Shown here in pieces: positions 531-4,005 of a stretch of DNA of 4,005 nucleotides. Under the pieces are notes generated by a model. The model had not been told where the DNA came from. It did not search any database and saw nothing but the letters and a program-made list of their open reading frames with translations. Every line of letters starts with the position of its first letter. The stretch's first letter is position 1. Position numbers and translations under genes: made by a program. The DNA is from a virus (taxonomy: Duplodnaviria > Heunggongvirae > Uroviricota > Caudoviricetes): IMG/VR virus record IMGVR_UViG_2671180656_000018; one strand, 5' to 3'.

Positions 531-559
531 GCCCGCGTCTCCCTGCGCGGGCTTTTTTT
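531..559 (+). terminator. Intrinsic terminator on the plus strand with no obvious upstream gene
   Basis: GC stem GCCCGCG (531-537) pairs with CGCGGGC (546-552), loop about 6-8 nt, followed by TTTTTTT (553-559). On the minus strand the same hairpin is followed by GGCAAGGAAU, so it is plus-strand specific. Confidence 0.55.
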
Positions 560-570
560 GTCCATAAGAA

Positions 571-590
571 AGCCCCTCCGGAGAGGGGCT
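571..590. other. GC-rich 8-bp-stem hairpin (inverted repeat) of unknown function
   Basis: AGCCCCTC (571-578), loop CGGA, GAGGGGCT (583-590): perfect 8-bp inverted repeat with 4-nt loop. It lies 11 nt downstream of the plus-strand terminator T-run. On the minus strand it is followed by UUCUU, a weak terminator-like tail. Confidence 0.5.
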
Positions 591-786
591 GGAGAGTGGC
601 GCTATGTGCCATTGCATGGTGCCGGGTGCCTCCCGGTGAATTCAGTACCAGCACCTGAATCCGCGATTATCCCATATACCTACTCGCTGATTGCCCCTCC
701 GCACAGGGGGATTCACCATGCCAGTTTCTTTTAACAAACTCCCCGCAAACCAGACAACAGTCAACCGCCTGAATTGTGAGACATTT

Positions 787-999: not shown

Positions 1000-1075
1000 T
1001 GGTGGCCCTTGCTGGATTTGAACCAGCGACCTGGTGATTATGAGTCGCTCGCTCTCACCACTGAGCTAAAGGGCT
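1000..1075 (-). tRNA. tRNA-Ile2-like (anticodon CAU, ileX/ileZ-type, presumably lysidine-modified to read AUA) with three A/C mismatches; possibly degenerate
   Basis: Hand fold: acceptor AGCCCTT/AAGGGCC with A1/C72 mismatch, D-arm GCTC-AGTGGTGA-GAGC, anticodon stem AGCGA/TCACC with mismatches at 27/43 and 29/41, loop CTCATAA (anticodon CAT), T-arm GCTGG-TTCAAAT-CCAGC perfect, discriminator A, encoded CCA at 1002-1000. Overall sequence resembles E. coli ileX as recalled from memory. Confidence 0.6.
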
Positions 1076-1103: not shown

Positions 1104-1817
1104 TCAATAATCAAGCCCTTGCCTGGATACATATCTGTCTGGCGGGAAGCCATAATAGCGGTGAAATACAGAAATAAAGTAGGACCAGCTTGAATAACCG
1201 CATTTTTCTGCTACAGCCTGTCCATATCCATGCCGGGAACATAACATATTGACAGCAACACGCATCCGCTCTTCCAGCAACAAGCGACTGAACATGTGCC
1301 CTTCATTTTTCAGTTTTATCTTTAACAAACTCTCACTCATATGCAGGCGTAACGCAATCGCACCAAGCGTCCAGCTTGCTGATATATCTGTCTGAATTAT
1401 CGCCCTGACTTTGGCACTTATACTGGATAAACATCCACTTAAAAATAATAATATCCGTTCATCTGATTCAAACAGCGACAGGCATGCCATCATAAGAAAC
1501 ATATCCGTGGTATCTCCGGAAAATCTCTGGCTGGTAATTAAAGCCTCAGCCAACGCAGGGTTGTTGGGTTCCAGTGACAGATAAAGCGGAACGTCAGTCA
1601 GATGAGTTCTTGTCAGCTTATGCTGAATTTCCAGATATTGACTTACTATGGAATGGTTTATATCGAAAATTTTAACTTTGCCATAATGCATAAGGAAAAG
1701 CGCCCTGATGCATTTGGTGGCCAGAACGACTGAGCCGGGCTTAAGTGACAACGTATCCTTTTCAAGAAAAATATTAATTGGGGAGCAAACCATGATAACT
1801 GAACAGACAACAACCAT
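1104..1817 (-). CDS. AraC/XylS-family transcriptional regulator (AppY/GadX-like), 237 aa
   Basis: Uninterrupted minus-strand ORF (ATG 1817..1815, TGA 1106..1104). C-terminal dual-HTH signature ...WTLGAIALRLHMSESLLKIKLKNEGHMFSRLLLEERMRVAVNMLCSRHGYGQAVAEKCGYSSWSYFISVFHRYYGFPPDRY is typical of AraC/XylS proteins. N-terminus MVVVCSVIMVCSPI and the C-terminal block resemble prophage-encoded AppY as recalled. AT-rich with rare codons (ATA, AGA, AGG seen in the first 60 codons). No clear SD before either candidate ATG (1817 or 1793). Confidence 0.8.
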   Translation of the reverse strand: MVVVCSVIMVCSPINIFLEKDTLSLKPGSVVLATKCIRALFLMHYGKVKIFDINHSIVSQYLEIQHKLTRTHLTDVPLYLSLEPNNPALAEALITSQRFSGDTTDMFLMMACLSLFESDERILLFLSGCLSSISAKVRAIIQTDISASWTLGAIALRLHMSESLLKIKLKNEGHMFSRLLLEERMRVAVNMLCSRHGYGQAVAEKCGYSSWSYFISVFHRYYGFPPDRYVSRQGLDY

Positions 1818-1852: not shown

Positions 1853-1883
1853 ATTATAGCCCCAAAAGGTAAATTATCATCAA
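1853..1883 (-). promoter_or_regulatory. Candidate sigma70 promoter for the AraC-family gene
   Basis: On the minus strand, TTGATG (plus 1878-1883) as -35, a 19-nt spacer, then a perfect TATAAT (plus 1853-1858) about 36 nt upstream of the ATG at 1817. Spacer is longer than optimal; prediction by eye only. Confidence 0.3.
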
Positions 1884-1911
1884 CACATAAGCAAAGGACT
1901 GACAGGTGCCG

Positions 1912-2151
1912 CTAACACCCACCAGCCGCCCATTTACCACAAATAAAAAAGCCTTCAGGACTGAAGGCGTCTGTAACAACCGAACTGATAGTCTGCCAGA
2001 CCCGCATAACCAGCTGGGTCAGTATTAACTGGCAGCGCTCGCGTGAAAGGTACGTATTCTGCGCAATCTCCCCGACCGTCGCCGGTTCGGTGACGCTTAA
2101 TTCATCAAACACAACTCTGGCGGTTTCTGTCATATCCTGCTGTTTCAGCAT
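1912..2151 (-). CDS. Hypothetical small protein (79 aa, possible HTH); coding status doubtful because an intrinsic terminator lies inside its 3' end
   Basis: ORF from the track, ATG 2151..2149, GC-normal composition. HTH-like segment PATVGEIAQNTYLSRERCQLILTQL. Only a distant GGG about 10 nt upstream as SD. The last roughly 19 codons (...AFSPEGFFICGKWAAGGC) are a read-through of the terminator hairpin and U-run at 1941-1968, so a terminated transcript would lack the stop codon. Confidence 0.3.
   Translation of the reverse strand: MLKQQDMTETARVVFDELSVTEPATVGEIAQNTYLSRERCQLILTQLVMRVWQTISSVVTDAFSPEGFFICGKWAAGGC
1941..1968 (-). terminator. Strong intrinsic terminator on the minus strand
   Basis: Minus-strand RNA: GCCUUCA-GUCC-UGAAGGC (perfect 7-bp stem, 4-nt loop; plus 1951-1968) followed by UUUUUUAUUU (plus A-run 1941-1950). 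Confidence 0.7.
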
Positions 2152-2274
2152 GTCTTTTTACCCTTTCCGGTTAACGTGACACACCAATAACTCTTGTCGA
2201 AAAAGCCAGCAAGCTGAAAGACCTGTATTAATAACTACCAGCACATTTAACGCACTGCGCTACTTTGCGGGCAC

Positions 2275-2297
2275 AAAAAACCCGCTCAGAGGCGGGG
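2275..2297 (-). terminator. Intrinsic terminator downstream of the CPBP protease gene
   Basis: Minus-strand RNA: CCCGC-CUCUGA-GCGGG (5-bp all-GC stem, plus 2281-2296) followed by UUUUUU (plus A-run 2275-2280). Lies about 140 nt after the CDS stop at 2438. Confidence 0.5.
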
Positions 2298-2437
2298 TCA
2301 AGCTATGCGGCGAAATAACCACTCTTAACAGCATACCTGATTTTTTACGTACGTAAATGCTTTGCCGTGCATATTTTTCATGCAAATGTCACGTCCTGCT
2401 ATTTTTCAGTCTTATAAATTTAAAACCATAGAAAAAA

Positions 2438-3256
2438 TCAATTATGTTTTAAAAATGGATAGGTAAAGAATAACAAGTGACACAGATTCAAACCAAAATG
2501 GAAAAGGGTGGCAACCCACAAACGCCCACTCCACATCCATGACAATCCATACACAACACCAGATAACGTGGCAAATAATACAAGTAAAGCACCACCTGAA
2601 TAGTGATAAAAACCAAACAACAAAGCCGCCACAATTAATGCAACCAATGGAGACGTTACTTCTGATAGCCGTGATTGAATATACCCTCTAAATAATGATT
2701 CCTCTGCCAGAGACACAAAAAACAAATTAGCCAATATAAACTCTGGCAACCACTCAGGAAAATGAATCTCTGGCTTTAATCCACCAAAAAAAACAGCCAA
2801 AAACAGGATAAGAGGAACAGAGAGCGACAGAGCCCCCCACTTCCACAAAGACACTTCTGATTTTACTTCTTTTTTAAACAAAGAAGATGTACACAGGACT
2901 AACAAAAATGGCACCAGCGCTTTATCAAAATTAAAATACATTGTATAGGGAGTACTTTGAGGGCCAACAGTAACAGAATTTAGCACTACAGGATTGTGAA
3001 ACCCTGGCCATAGATGGAAAAATAATGCTATGGCTGATAAAACTATGCCAACTTCATATATAGATTTAGCCCAGGCGTTATATTTCCAGTTGAACTTCAA
3101 AATAATAAAAAAAACGATTGTAGCAACAAAAAATAACACCGACCAATCAATAATATCATTAAGCACAGCCAGGACAACAGACACCGTCAACAATGAAAAA
3201 GCCACTACCTTATGCCAACTGAGAGTTGACAGTGACAGTACTAACACAATCCACAT
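2438..3256 (-). CDS. CPBP-family (CAAX protease / Abi, PF02517-like) intramembrane metalloprotease, polytopic membrane protein, about 272 aa
   Basis: Minus-strand ORF. I place the start at ATG 3256..3254, which has a strong SD AAGGAG (plus 3262-3267) 5 nt upstream; the track start two codons earlier is a GTG with no SD spacing. Stop TGA at 2440..2438. Highly hydrophobic sequence. The three CPBP signature motifs are present in order in the C-terminal half: EExxxR (LAEESLFRGY), FxxxH (LLFGFYHY) and HxxxN (HFGLNL). AT-rich with ATA codons. Confidence 0.8.
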   Translation of the reverse strand: MWIVLVLSLSTLSWHKVVAFSLLTVSVVLAVLNDIIDWSVLFFVATIVFFIILKFNWKYNAWAKSIYEVGIVLSAIALFFHLWPGFHNPVVLNSVTVGPQSTPYTMYFNFDKALVPFLLVLCTSSLFKKEVKSEVSLWKWGALSLSVPLILFLAVFFGGLKPEIHFPEWLPEFILANLFFVSLAEESLFRGYIQSRLSEVTSPLVALIVAALLFGFYHYSGGALLVLFATLSGVVYGLSWMWSGRLWVATLFHFGLNLCHLLFFTYPFLKHN

Positions 3257-3287
3257 AAGCACTCCTTTTATTTAATGATGAAGATTG

Positions 3288-3316
3288 ATTATCAATATTT
3301 TCAATTCACCAGGCAA
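3288..3316 (-). promoter_or_regulatory. Candidate sigma70 promoter upstream of the CPBP protease gene
   Basis: On the minus strand, TTGCCT (plus 3311-3316), 17-nt spacer, GATAAT (plus 3288-3293), about 30 nt upstream of the SD. Prediction by eye only. Confidence 0.3.
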
Positions 3317-3407
3317 CATTTTATCTACCTTCCACAATACATGACCATCAAAAAATAAACATGTTAATTATAAACACAGAAAACATAACCCTCATCACTA
3401 TATATCC

Positions 3408-3779
3408 CTACCGCATATCCATATCTAACCGGACATTCAGAGCCATAAGCATTCCTTCAATAATACCTTCCGCTTTATAAAGCCTTTTACCAATAAGCCC
3501 ATCAGAACATCTATGCTTACGTGCAAGAGCCATAAATGTCATTCCACCTACGTAATAATCCACCAACAAATCGTGCAAATACTGATTATTCTTGTTTAAT
3601 CGTGCCATACAACCACAAATTATCATGGCGTCATCATCAGAACACTTAGGACGTGATTTCACTTTAGTCGGGATTAATCCTTTAAAACCAGCAGCTATCG
3701 AGGGCCATGTTACATCTTCATGATTATTTGCTGCCCATGCCCCCCATCGCTCAAGAACCATCTGGATATCACGCGCCAT
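3408..3779 (-). CDS. Phage late-gene antiterminator Q (QuuD/Q21-type, Phage_antitermQ family), about 123 aa
   Basis: Minus-strand ORF. I place the start at ATG 3779..3777 with SD GAGGTGG 5 nt upstream (plus 3785-3791); the track start three codons earlier is a GTG. Stop TAG at 3410..3408. Sequence [25 protein letters not shown]...[16 protein letters not shown]...LLVDYY... closely matches my recollection of E. coli prophage Q proteins (QuuD/QuuQ). Position is directly downstream of rusA, as in lambdoid prophages. Confidence 0.85.
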
Positions 3780-4005
3780 CGTTACCACCTCTGATTTCGT
3801 AAATCTTCACGCCCAGCCGTCCACCTGGCACAGGCTGACCGCGCACAATATTGATTTCATCAAACTGCTCGTCATCAATGAGCACTTCCGCATGCGTCAG
3901 CGCATCCAGCGGTGCTTTCAGAATGTTGTCCAGGTCACGGCGGCGCTTATCCGGTGGTTCTGCAATAATTTTTATTGCCAGCCGTCCGGACAGGCTTAAT
4001 TTCAG
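3769..4005 (-). CDS. rusA: RusA Holliday-junction resolvase, C-terminal 78 aa; N-terminus lies beyond the window edge
   Basis: Minus-strand frame is open from the window edge to TGA at 3771..3769. Translation ...[62 protein letters not shown] matches the recalled RusA C-terminus (PDRRRRDLDNL...GGRL...). The stop overlaps the Q start codon region. Confidence 0.8.

Follow-up and report, generated by a model that had tools for sequence, protein, structure and literature searches.

We found that the 79-codon open reading frame in the late region of prophage Sp4 is, by sequence comparison with its homologues, a 1-bp frameshift copy of a conserved gene for a 63 to 65 aa winged-helix protein. Taken as a whole, and with a probability of roughly 85%, we read this locus as a dead copy of a real late-operon gene whose native stop codon lies inside an intrinsic terminator (t2), with a late promoter (PR') and a first terminator (t1) upstream. 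The window, by which we mean the whole 4005-nucleotide stretch of viral DNA analyzed, corresponds to ECs_1084 to ECs_1087 in prophage Sp4 of Escherichia coli O157:H7 Sakai (99.9% identity). All relevant elements lie on the minus strand, which an original prediction made from the sequence had left unstated. The features on which the argument depends are as follows.

3408-3788, minus strand: gene for a Q antiterminator of the 933W type (Pfam Phage_antitermQ, E 9e-52; 74% nucleotide identity to the Sp5 Q gene).
3262-2438, between Q and PR': CPBP/Rce1-like moron (Pfam Rce1-like, E 1e-19).
2328-2355, minus strand: PR'-homologous late promoter (-35 TTTACG at 2355-2350, 16-nt spacer, -10 TATGCT at 2333-2328).
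2275-2296, minus strand: t1, promoter-proximal terminator of the tR' type (CCCGC/GCGGG stem, 6-nt loop, UUUUUUG tail; terminator scan).
2176-2220, minus strand: conserved 5'-UTR block CTTTCAGCTTGCTGGCTTTTTCGACAAGAGTTATTGGTGTGTCAC (position-wise conservation in 95 distinct sequences).
1912-2151, minus strand: 79-codon open reading frame (79 aa, ATG start, TAG stop at 1914-1912; open reading frame list).
1955-2151, minus strand: pseudogene of the 63 to 65 aa winged-helix protein, ECs_1086 (native TGA at 1957-1955; PGAP/RefSeq and alignments).
2004-2005, minus strand: site of the 1-bp deletion (ATGGCGGG to ATGCGGG after Met49, whose ATG is at 2007-2005).
1941-1968, minus strand: t2, terminator GCCUUCA-GUCC-UGAAGGC with U-tract UUUUUUAUUU, the native stop lying in the loop and 3' arm.
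1897-1934, minus strand: remnant (5' part) of a methylase leader (alignments; scan match at 1927-1897).
1853-1880, minus strand: best sigma-70-like site in the window (ATGATA-16-TATAAT, 10/12; promoter scan).
1104-1817, minus strand: psrA (ECs1087), an AraC-like regulator gene and cargo in the methylase's place (Pfam HTH_18/HTH_AraC; Sakai annotation).
In the intact module (e.g., phiP27 L23-L24): stem GGUCACAAGC/GCUUACUGAUC.

The segment that holds the small gene had been described as GC-normal, unlike its AT-rich neighbors, as resembling phage backbone, and as lying in a late-promoter/terminator zone, and on all three points our analysis agreed: GC content was 0.545 at 1901-2100 versus 0.32-0.41 in the flanking cargo genes, AT-rich morons sit on either side, and the elements listed above place it among late control signals. 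Downstream, ECs1087 carries the name psrA (PMC13502914), and the sigma-70-like site at 1853-1880, which lies just beyond the end of alignable similarity to the methylase leader, is from its sequence likely this moron's own promoter.

Nucleotide alignment with the intact 65-aa gene of phage Stx2a_1447, whose TGA sits in the hairpin, revealed a one-base gap, and in the family protein alignment the window's product departs from all homologues from residue 50 on. Residues 1-49 are 92-97% identical to E. coli forms, and the open reading frame matched phrog_331 in PHROGs (E 5.7e-32). Its last 30 codons are an out-of-frame reading of the t2 terminator and the next conserved element, and the uninterrupted frame of 63 to 65 codons, with its ending ...GCY(K/R)RLQ and a stop in the hairpin, is absent from this copy. 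An AlphaFold model of an intact member shows a winged helix (pLDDT 89) with its wing, a beta-hairpin, at residues 53-62; these residues are replaced in the window's product, which, judged from the model, is without the wing of the fold. The frameshifted state itself was already known, as the RefSeq annotation (PGAP, "TrmB family transcriptional regulator, frameshifted", at exactly 1955-2151) precedes the present analysis. The original prediction had considered the open reading frame unlikely to be expressed as annotated, and our analysis agrees; the HTH-like peptide it noticed does derive from a winged-helix family, and its alternative of a truncated gene came nearest to the truth among its readings, the actual lesion being a 1-bp frameshift.

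The intact form is widespread and constrained. There were 339 homologues, mostly of 63 to 65 aa, from E. coli, Salmonella, Klebsiella, Citrobacter, Buttiauxella, and Pantoea, and the family was present in about 1970 of 5426 complete E. coli genomes (about 36%). Among intact homologues the median dN/dS was 0.077, and pairwise differences at the three codon positions were 0.135, 0.110, and 0.459, the third being 3-4 times positions 1 and 2; these genes are under strong purifying selection and evolve as a protein. Orthologues of ECs_1086 include phiP27 L23 and unnamed open reading frames of SfV, cdtI, mEp460, and Stx2a/Stx2c phages (PHROG 331); like ECs_1086 they lie directly after PR' and its terminator and share the same stop-codon terminator, whereas ECs_1086 differs in the 1-bp deletion at codon 50, the loss of the wing, and the loss of the downstream methylase. 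The intact 65-aa form scored 17.8 bits against Pfam PF01978 (TrmB), below the gathering cut-off of 25.6, and despite its PGAP name the protein falls outside the TrmB family proper; an NCBIfam search gave no match for the small protein. Foldseek with the intact fold returned generic wHTH domains only (IclR, MarR, methyltransferase dimerization domains, and SelB; TM up to 0.81), and only two Cys are conserved in the family. In the literature searched we found no published function for any family member and nothing on ECs1086.

We weighed these data against the proposal that the 79-aa protein is real and attenuated by its internal terminator. Its ATG has an AAGGG Shine-Dalgarno sequence (2165-2161) 9 nt upstream, and 79-aa "TrmB family" proteins do exist in databases (P0001 and P0006). 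However, those entries keep family sequence to residue 63 and differ only by another indel, one within the loop of the hairpin, whereas the window's version loses family sequence from residue 50; what follows is translated terminator and conserved non-coding element, a Pfam search of the 79-aa form found no match, and 63 to 65 aa is overwhelmingly the commonest length. A functional 79-aa protein is therefore highly improbable, and the original prediction was not borne out on this point. Programmed frameshifting was ruled out, since family members normally have the in-frame 63 to 65 aa form, and an intact open reading frame also occurs in the psrA context. An exact 61-mer of the frameshift was present in 347 complete E. 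coli records and the intact 62-mer in 651; among 120 viral contigs, the window's state was seen in 2, and an intact open reading frame with methylase in 86. The frameshifted allele is 100% conserved across hundreds of genomes, which could mean retention; this uniformity would follow equally well from recent clonal descent among O157:H7 and related STEC.

The terminator that the original prediction placed at 1941-1968, within the 79-codon frame, held up as a canonical, conserved element on the same strand as that frame. Its hairpin (1968-1951) has seven pairs, four of them G-C, a 4-nt loop, and a folding energy of -10.5 kcal/mol, and it is followed by TTTTTTATTT at 1950-1941, a U6AU3 tract whose last U lies 27 nt before the TAG of the 79-codon open reading frame. 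The terminator scan returned 12 terminator-like sites in the window versus 4.4 +/- 2.2 in shuffles, a count that taken alone is weak evidence for a terminator. Conservation was more telling: the hairpin is kept in 87 distinct homologues, where 4/4 counted pairs vary on both sides with 95% of cells paired, and by these sequences it is maintained by compensatory changes. Beyond the E. coli/E. albertii clade the U-tract 3' of the hairpin is weaker (UUUCUGCUGUG). The stop codon lies inside the hairpin in 19/19 related loci, and since the native TGA of the gene thus sits within the terminator, the arrangement is an ordinary one. An RNA of this allele that ends at t2 holds no in-frame stop, as was foreseen when the terminated transcript was described as a non-stop mRNA.

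By homology, we place the Sp4 late promoter at 2355-2328, with the small gene as the first cistron after it and t1 and t2 on either side. The promoter, initial transcribed sequence, and first hairpin of the PR'-tR' region of Stx phages Sp5/Sp15 (the source of StxS, PMC7547250) are homologous to 2357-2275, and 2275-2357 aligned with Sakai Sp5 L003:1312-1393 at 75% identity (E 2e-7, blastn). In Sp5, the position equivalent to PR' is followed 258 nt further on by the end of the tR' U-tract, the PR'-to-tR' distance mapped there by dRNA-seq and Term-seq (PMC7547250). Transcription in Sp4 would start at about A2321 and run first through AAGAGTGGTTA, the conserved initial transcribed sequence, and t1 would extend from about +26 to +47. 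The t1 hairpin, with its 5-bp all-G-C stem and folding energy of -9 kcal/mol, is weaker than in Sp5; homologous hairpins occur in Sp5 (L003:1371-1397) and in Stx2a_1447. The PR'/t1 module is conserved in 15 distinct variants. More broadly, of 101 distinct regions upstream of the small gene, 91 hold a terminator-like hairpin with a T-run, the hairpin sequences differing, and three Q types match three PR' types with the same small gene downstream of all. The Sp4 PR' scores 8/12 versus the sigma-70 consensus, under the promoter-scan threshold, and lies 1 kb from the Q gene, parted from it, unlike in Sp5, by the inserted CPBP gene. We infer PR' activity, the efficiencies of t1 and t2, and Q dependence in Sp4 from these sequence relationships.

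The original prediction had called for a promoter at about 2160-2270, and there our promoter scan found no sigma-70-like site on the minus strand and inspection by eye found no sigma-54 (GG-N10-GC) or sigma-32 pattern; the PR' homologue, at 2355-2328, lies outside that interval. The idea of a pR'-tR'-like unit was one step off: a PR' homologue with its own t1 stands upstream. The t1 terminator (2296-2275) had entered the earlier interval only as its edge.

What does lie in that interval is the 5'-UTR block at 2220-2176, near-invariant across genera and always 3' of a terminator. It could be an independent promoter that drives the small gene, making promoter, open reading frame, and t2 an autonomous cassette expressed in the lysogen, and a -35-like TTGCTG with TAT 17 nt downstream would fit. 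We consider this unlikely: the block has no acceptable -10, its candidate lacking the -7 T (98% of sequences have G at this last position), nothing in it matched in the consensus promoter scan, and a 5'-UTR RNA element or a site bound by protein would account equally well for its conservation.

Comparison with well-described late leaders bears on whether the locus is instead a source of regulatory RNA. Sp5 and Sp4 have the same Q type, and each has a second terminator some few hundred nt further downstream, but the bodies between the terminators are unrelated: that of Sp4 is a decayed protein gene, and that of Sp5 is a non-coding AT-rich 200-nt segment, which is processed to the sRNA StxS (Sy, Lan and Tree 2020, PMC7547250). 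An alignment to late-promoter regions, the check proposed with the original prediction, matched PR' and t1 to Sp5 and found no match to the StxS body or to lambda; homology of 1900-2275 to StxS was not found, only PR' and t1 matching Sp5. With the lambda pR'-6S-tR' unit, Sp4 would share its logic, in which the late promoter is constitutively active, transcripts end early, and read-through depends on Q, and in lambda, too, an annotated but spurious frame, orf-64, runs through tR'. Homology of the 79-codon open reading frame to orf-64 was ruled out, the sequences being unrelated. The lambda leader is non-coding by all accounts, whereas that of Sp4 derives from a gene under purifying selection and has no sequence similarity to it.

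These comparisons leave it quite improbable that an RNA made from PR' to t2 (about 380 nt), or a 3' fragment processed from it and ending at t2, serves in the lysogen as a regulatory RNA like 6S or StxS to which the open reading frame is irrelevant. Such an RNA would have the PR' homologue upstream to produce it, and the Sp5 equivalent of the t1 hairpin lies within the 258-nt StxS precursor, so that t1 is read through in vivo; the t2 stem with its long U-tail is typical of Hfq-binding 3' ends, and coding capacity is already gone in the Sp4 allele. Weighing against it, blastn gave no similarity to StxS or the lambda 6S region, no Rfam family matched 1900-2300 at E <= 1, and the literature searched yielded no Hfq or CLASH evidence for the locus. 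Intact relatives show constraint at the protein level, and any RNA role here would therefore be secondary and recent. By origin, then, the segment is not the non-coding 6S-like leader that had been proposed, but a protein gene (dN/dS 0.077).

Downstream of t2, the window retains about 40 nt of a methylase leader, whose 3' arm is degenerate here. The remnant holds the invariant 21-mer AATGGGCGGCTGGTGGGTGTT (1934-1914), including the Chi octamer GCTGGTGG (1926-1919), and the exact 21-mer occurs in at least 120 viral contigs. In most relatives the locus continues here with a highly conserved structured leader of ~150 nt followed by an N6/N4 methylase (PF01555, DPPY), which was found in 86 of ~95 informative viral contigs. 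The non-coding leader is more conserved than the module's genes, and the methylase start region is paired in its conserved stem. An Rfam search with the intact leader (L007) returned nothing at E <= 10 beyond generic terminator-like noise, and we found no description of the small-protein/leader/methylase module in Rfam or the literature searched. An antisense open reading frame ("MSEWLAGCYNTHQPPI") over the conserved hairpin was ruled out, since its frame is not kept from locus to locus, owing to 1-nt indels in the loop. The conserved inverted repeat is disfavored as a DNA operator for the wHTH protein: the 5' arm is invariant and the 3' arm varies in a G-U-compatible manner (UG 48/UA 39; GC 69/GU 17), which fits a sense-strand RNA rather than a DNA palindrome.

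In Sp4, psrA stands in place of the methylase and most of the leader, with the usual PR'/terminator context upstream. Two other loci (L042 and L080) have psrA downstream and yet an intact small open reading frame, and the frameshift is therefore later than the psrA replacement. From this we would reconstruct an ancestral order, in many lambdoid prophages of Enterobacteriaceae, of PR', t1, the 63 to 65 aa gene, and t2, with leader and methylase in most; in Sp4, the psrA moron would have replaced the methylase and most of the leader, and one G would later have been lost after codon 49, so that the shifted frame passes the native TGA, crosses t2, and ends 40 nt on to give 79 codons. In the lysogen, PR' would be constitutive, most transcripts ending at t1 (about 47 nt) and the remainder at t2 (about 380 nt), and translation of the latter would end in ribosome rescue with no stable product. 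Upon induction, Q-modified polymerase would pass t1 and t2 into psrA, tRNAs, and the lysis genes.

The intact module invites comparison with two other systems. In phage Mu, the gene for Com, a zinc-finger protein of about 62 aa, directly precedes mom, a late DNA-modification gene with its translation start buried in an RNA stem. The intact module resembles this in its small protein and in a methylase start region paired in a conserved stem; unlike Com, the small protein here is a winged helix, and the window is without the methylase. In Stx phage PA8, PNB-2 forms a 1:1 complex with the methyltransferase M.EcoPA8orf6770P and determines its substrate (Gong, Chakraborty and Koudelka 2023, PMC10810198). 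Both PNB-2 and the small protein are winged helices encoded just upstream of a phage methyltransferase with a terminator ahead; however, PNB-2 has 143 aa and serves an MT-A70 enzyme (DPPW) in an early region, whereas here the partner is PF01555 (DPPY) in a late operon. Homology to PNB-1 or PNB-2 of PA8 was not found (PNB-2 BLASTP E 0.23), and this likeness is one of analogy only. Tentatively, and as a possibility we would not call probable, the intact unit (63 to 65 aa winged helix, stop-codon terminator, leader, and methylase) could be an undescribed late-operon control device, the small protein being a Com-like activator of methylase translation that binds RNA, or else a specificity subunit like PNB-2, with the ~380-nt PR'-to-t2 RNA of Sp4 possibly also co-opted as a StxS-like regulatory RNA.

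The finding itself changes little beyond removing a false lead: neither recoding nor an attenuated 79-aa protein nor a new class of RNA is involved, and ECs_1086 of the Sakai record should be treated as a pseudogene. The small-protein/leader/methylase module, first in the late operon and carried by about 36% of complete E. coli genomes, appears uncharacterized. For Sp4, the arrangement of sites suggests that the virulence regulator gene psrA could be transcribed from its own promoter and also by Q-antiterminated late transcription through the two tandem terminators upstream, and the latter would tie prophage induction to the control of type III secretion and acid resistance.

The window shares 99.9% identity with prophage Sp4 of E. 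coli O157:H7 Sakai, and its positions 1850-2420 are 100% identical to many O157:H7 and other STEC genomes. All of its genes lie on the minus strand, and psrA (gene name from PMC13502914) is followed, in order, by three tRNA genes, an STnc100-family sRNA, and the beginning of a nanS-p-type esterase. As the original prediction described, a GC-normal segment (0.545 at 1901-2100) sits between AT-rich flanking genes (0.32-0.41).

Genes and elements around the small ORF
3788-3408, minus: Q antiterminator (Pfam Phage_antitermQ)
3262-2438, minus: CPBP/Rce1-like membrane protease, between Q and the small ORF
2151-1912, minus: small ORF ECs_1086, between the CPBP/Rce1-like gene and psrA
1934-1897: remnant of the methylase leader (intact in homologous loci L004-L023, L002:5800-5965, and L146:3700-3848)
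1880-1853, minus: psrA's own promoter-like site
1817-1104, minus: psrA (ECs1087), AraC-like regulator

The Rfam STnc100 match at 560-750 (minus; 138 bits, E 2e-31) is full length, lies between the tRNA genes and the esterase gene, and is flanked by terminator-like hairpins at 531-552 (plus), 590-571 (minus), and 811-794 (minus). This site is what PMC4104026 describes, in Sp4 and further prophages, as the "moron-site" sRNA region, and STnc100 is reportedly related to PasD (bioRxiv 10.64898/2026.05.13.724894). The tRNA at 1000-1075 (minus) is called Met (cat) by ARAGORN and ileZ (tRNA-Ile, CAT anticodon, presumably lysidine-modified) in genome records, a difference in naming only.

The 79-codon ORF predicted at 1912-2151 and the intrinsic terminator within it were both recovered: the ORF list agrees (minus strand), and a terminator scan finds on the same strand a 7-bp hairpin (1968-1951) and, directly after it, TTTTTTATTT (1950-1941), a U-tract that ends 27 nt before the ORF's TAG stop codon. 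The inference that there is no real 79-aa protein was right, as was the location in a late-promoter zone, but the explanation is more mundane, namely a pseudogene already annotated as frameshifted, with a normal terminator at the gene's end. RefSeq/PGAP annotates 1955-2151 as "TrmB family transcriptional regulator, frameshifted," and alignment to the corresponding region of phage Stx2a_1447 reveals one missing G, changing ATGGCGGG to ATGCGGG at 2005/2004, right after Met49. The intact Stx2a_1447 gene encodes 65 aa with the C terminus ...GCYRRLQS, and its TGA corresponds to 1957-1955, in the loop and 3' arm of the hairpin of this terminator (t2). In a 23-sequence protein alignment, the window product matches the family up to residue 49 and is unrelated beyond; the frameshift costs it the winged-helix wing, and the final 30 residues of the 79-codon ORF are an out-of-frame translation of the terminator and the next conserved noncoding element. 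We conclude that the ECs_1086 ORF is a FRAMESHIFTED pseudogene. Allele-specific searches of 5,426 complete E. coli genomes, ~1,970 of which carry the segment in some form, showed that 347 records contain the exact 61-mer with the deletion and 651 contain the exact 62-mer of the intact form.

Two homologous database proteins (P0001 and P0006) reach a 79-aa product by a second, independent route, in which an indel in the hairpin loop deletes the stop codon to give ...YRRLQPEGFFICGKWAAGGC, so placing the stop within a hairpin is mutationally fragile. The start codon also lies within a small conserved hairpin, A-UGCUG-AAA-CAGCA (2151-2138, minus), which the terminator scan lists as a weak terminator-like site on the plus strand (2138-2150) and which might modulate translation initiation of the small gene.

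The intact small gene is a real gene. Its 339 homologues, mostly 63-65 aa, come from Escherichia, Shigella, Salmonella, Klebsiella, Citrobacter, Buttiauxella, Pantoea, and others; across 16 loci, pairwise divergence at codon positions 1, 2, and 3 is 0.135, 0.110, and 0.459, with a median dN/dS of 0.077 at a median dS of 1.3. The AlphaFold2 model (pLDDT 89) is a confident winged helix-turn-helix (wHTH), with helices at residues 5-17, 26-33, and 37-49 and a beta-hairpin wing at 53-62, and Foldseek returned only generic wHTH domains. "TrmB family" is a loose label, because the Pfam TrmB score is below threshold (17.8 bits versus a cut-off of 25.6).

We also conclude that t2, with a hairpin folding energy of -10.5 kcal/mol, is an ordinary, conserved gene-end terminator. 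A stop codon falls inside a hairpin at this position in 19/19 related loci from different genera, with differing hairpin sequences; among 87 distinct sequences, 95% of cells pair and 4/4 counted pairs changed on both sides. The U-tract after the hairpin is weaker (UUUCUGCUGUG) in sequences from outside the E. coli/E. albertii clade. A t2-terminated transcript includes the complete intact ORF, and a non-stop mRNA, the paradox raised in the original prediction, results only with the deleted allele.

A promoter had been proposed at about 2160-2270, where a consensus scan finds none; the strongly conserved block at 2220-2176 has a -35-like TTGCTG without an acceptable -10. Just upstream instead is a homologue of the late promoter PR': 2357-2275 is 75% identical over 84 nt (E 2e-7) to the sequence that immediately follows Q in Sakai Sp5. 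Sy et al. (PMC7547250) mapped the Sp5 PR' start to a point 258 nt before the 3' end seen by Term-seq at tR', and counting back 258 nt from where the tR' U-tract ends in Sp5 leads to a position 7 nt past the hexamer TATCAT.

Elements assigned by equivalence with Sp5
2355-2350, minus: -35, TTTACG
2333-2328, minus: -10, TATGCT
~2321, minus: transcription start
after the start, minus: conserved initial transcribed sequence AAGAGTGGTTA
2296-2275, minus: hairpin terminator t1

The PR'/t1 module aligns well across 15 distinct variants. Three kinds of Q gene (933W-like, lambda-like, and 82-like) occur across 20 genome loci, and behind each come a promoter of the corresponding type (with the AACGATGGG motif in the lambda-like promoters), a terminator, and then the same small gene. 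Of 101 distinct regions upstream of the small gene, 91 contain a terminator-like hairpin, whose median distance from the ATG is 118 nt. This order puts the small gene ahead of all other cistrons downstream of PR'/tR', with a terminator on each side.

The -35 of Sp5 lies right against the stop codon of Q. In the window, the AT-rich (33-40% GC) CPBP/Rce1-like gene region (2438-3407), with its own promoter-like sites at 3347-3275, is inserted between Q and the PR' homologue, leaving the late promoter ~1 kb from its antiterminator gene. At the same spot, Stx2a_1447 carries two genes on the opposite strand and phiP27 carries a GIY-YIG nuclease. Sp5 also has a strong terminator-like hairpin (8-bp stem and U7; L003:1371-1397) at about +25 to +52 of the PR' transcript, within the 258-nt precursor of the sRNA StxS; a ~50-nt transcript ending there would escape standard RNA-seq, and the sections of PMC7547250 consulted name only the +258 site tR'.

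After the small gene, 20/20 genome loci have a PF01555 N6/N4 methylase (~350 aa) and then lysis genes; this arrangement is shared by phiP27 (Q, inserted nuclease, L23, L24 methylase, tRNAs, and stx2e). The near-invariant 150-nt spacer between the small gene and the methylase, which holds an invariant 21-mer (AATGGGCGGCTGGTGGGTGTT), is conserved across Enterobacterales more than either coding sequence. It folds far more stably than shuffles (Salmonella form, z -3.8; E. coli form, z -4.8; 0/200 as stable), and the shared fold comprises the terminator hairpin, a long hairpin built on the 21-mer, and the stem GGUCACAAGC/GCUUACUGAUC whose 3' strand ends beside the methylase AUG, burying the methylase start region. 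Across 87 sequences, 98.5% of cells pair and eight pairs changed on both sides (3.8 in shuffles, with slid controls far lower). The fold is provisional in detail, since most pairs are invariant and RNAalifold folds from 21 and 87 sequences partly differ. G-U-compatible variation on one arm favors RNA rather than a DNA palindrome, and no Rfam family matches the leader, which is possibly a new cis-regulatory RNA. The invariant arm includes, inside the 21-mer, the E. coli Chi octamer GCTGGTGG (window 1926-1919, minus), which could be a by-product of the RNA hairpin or else a genuine RecBCD signal at a junction of the module; in perfect-palindrome leaders (L004, L002, L013, and L021) the Chi complement is also in the 3' arm.

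The window keeps only the first ~40 nt of this spacer (1934-1897), with psrA next. Among 120 viral contigs with the exact 21-mer, 86 have the intact ORF and methylase, 2 are identical to the window, and 3 have the intact ORF without the methylase. Two of these three (L042 and L080, from IMG/VR) carry the psrA-type replacement seen in the window yet an intact 65-codon small gene, indicating that the gene can persist without its usual neighbor and that psrA replaced the methylase first, the Sp4 frameshift being secondary. Five others (L075, L086, L091, L102, and L126) have leader and methylase without the small gene, which places the leader with the methylase; in each of the five, a hairpin and U-rich stretch ending ...CUGUGRA still directly precede the leader, and in L091 the tR' of a lambda-type PR' itself forms this hairpin.

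For Stx phages it is established that PR' is constitutively active in the lysogen (PMC7547250), as it would be in the Sp4 lysogen. Transcripts would stop at t1 (~47 nt) or, past t1, at t2 (~380 nt); the location of the Sp5 t1 homologue within the StxS precursor shows that t1 is indeed read through in vivo. On t2-ended RNA of the deleted allele, ribosomes would meet no stop codon, with ribosome rescue and degradation expected. On induction, Q-modified polymerase would be expected to pass both terminators into psrA, the tRNAs, and the lysis genes.

The likeness to the lambda pR'-tR' and Stx PR'-StxS-tR' units is limited to promoter and terminators; membership in that noncoding leader class is ruled out by protein-level constraint and by the lack of homology to the lambda and StxS leaders. 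Lambda orf-64 also runs through tR' but is unrelated to ECs_1086. The intact order resembles PNB-2/M.EcoPA8orf6770P (PMC10810198), a small wHTH gene before a methylase, although there is no homology between the proteins, and the two enzymes come from separate families. The pseudogene is in itself of low interest; worth following are the conserved module of small protein, leader, and methylase, and the displaced PR' that lies upstream of psrA.
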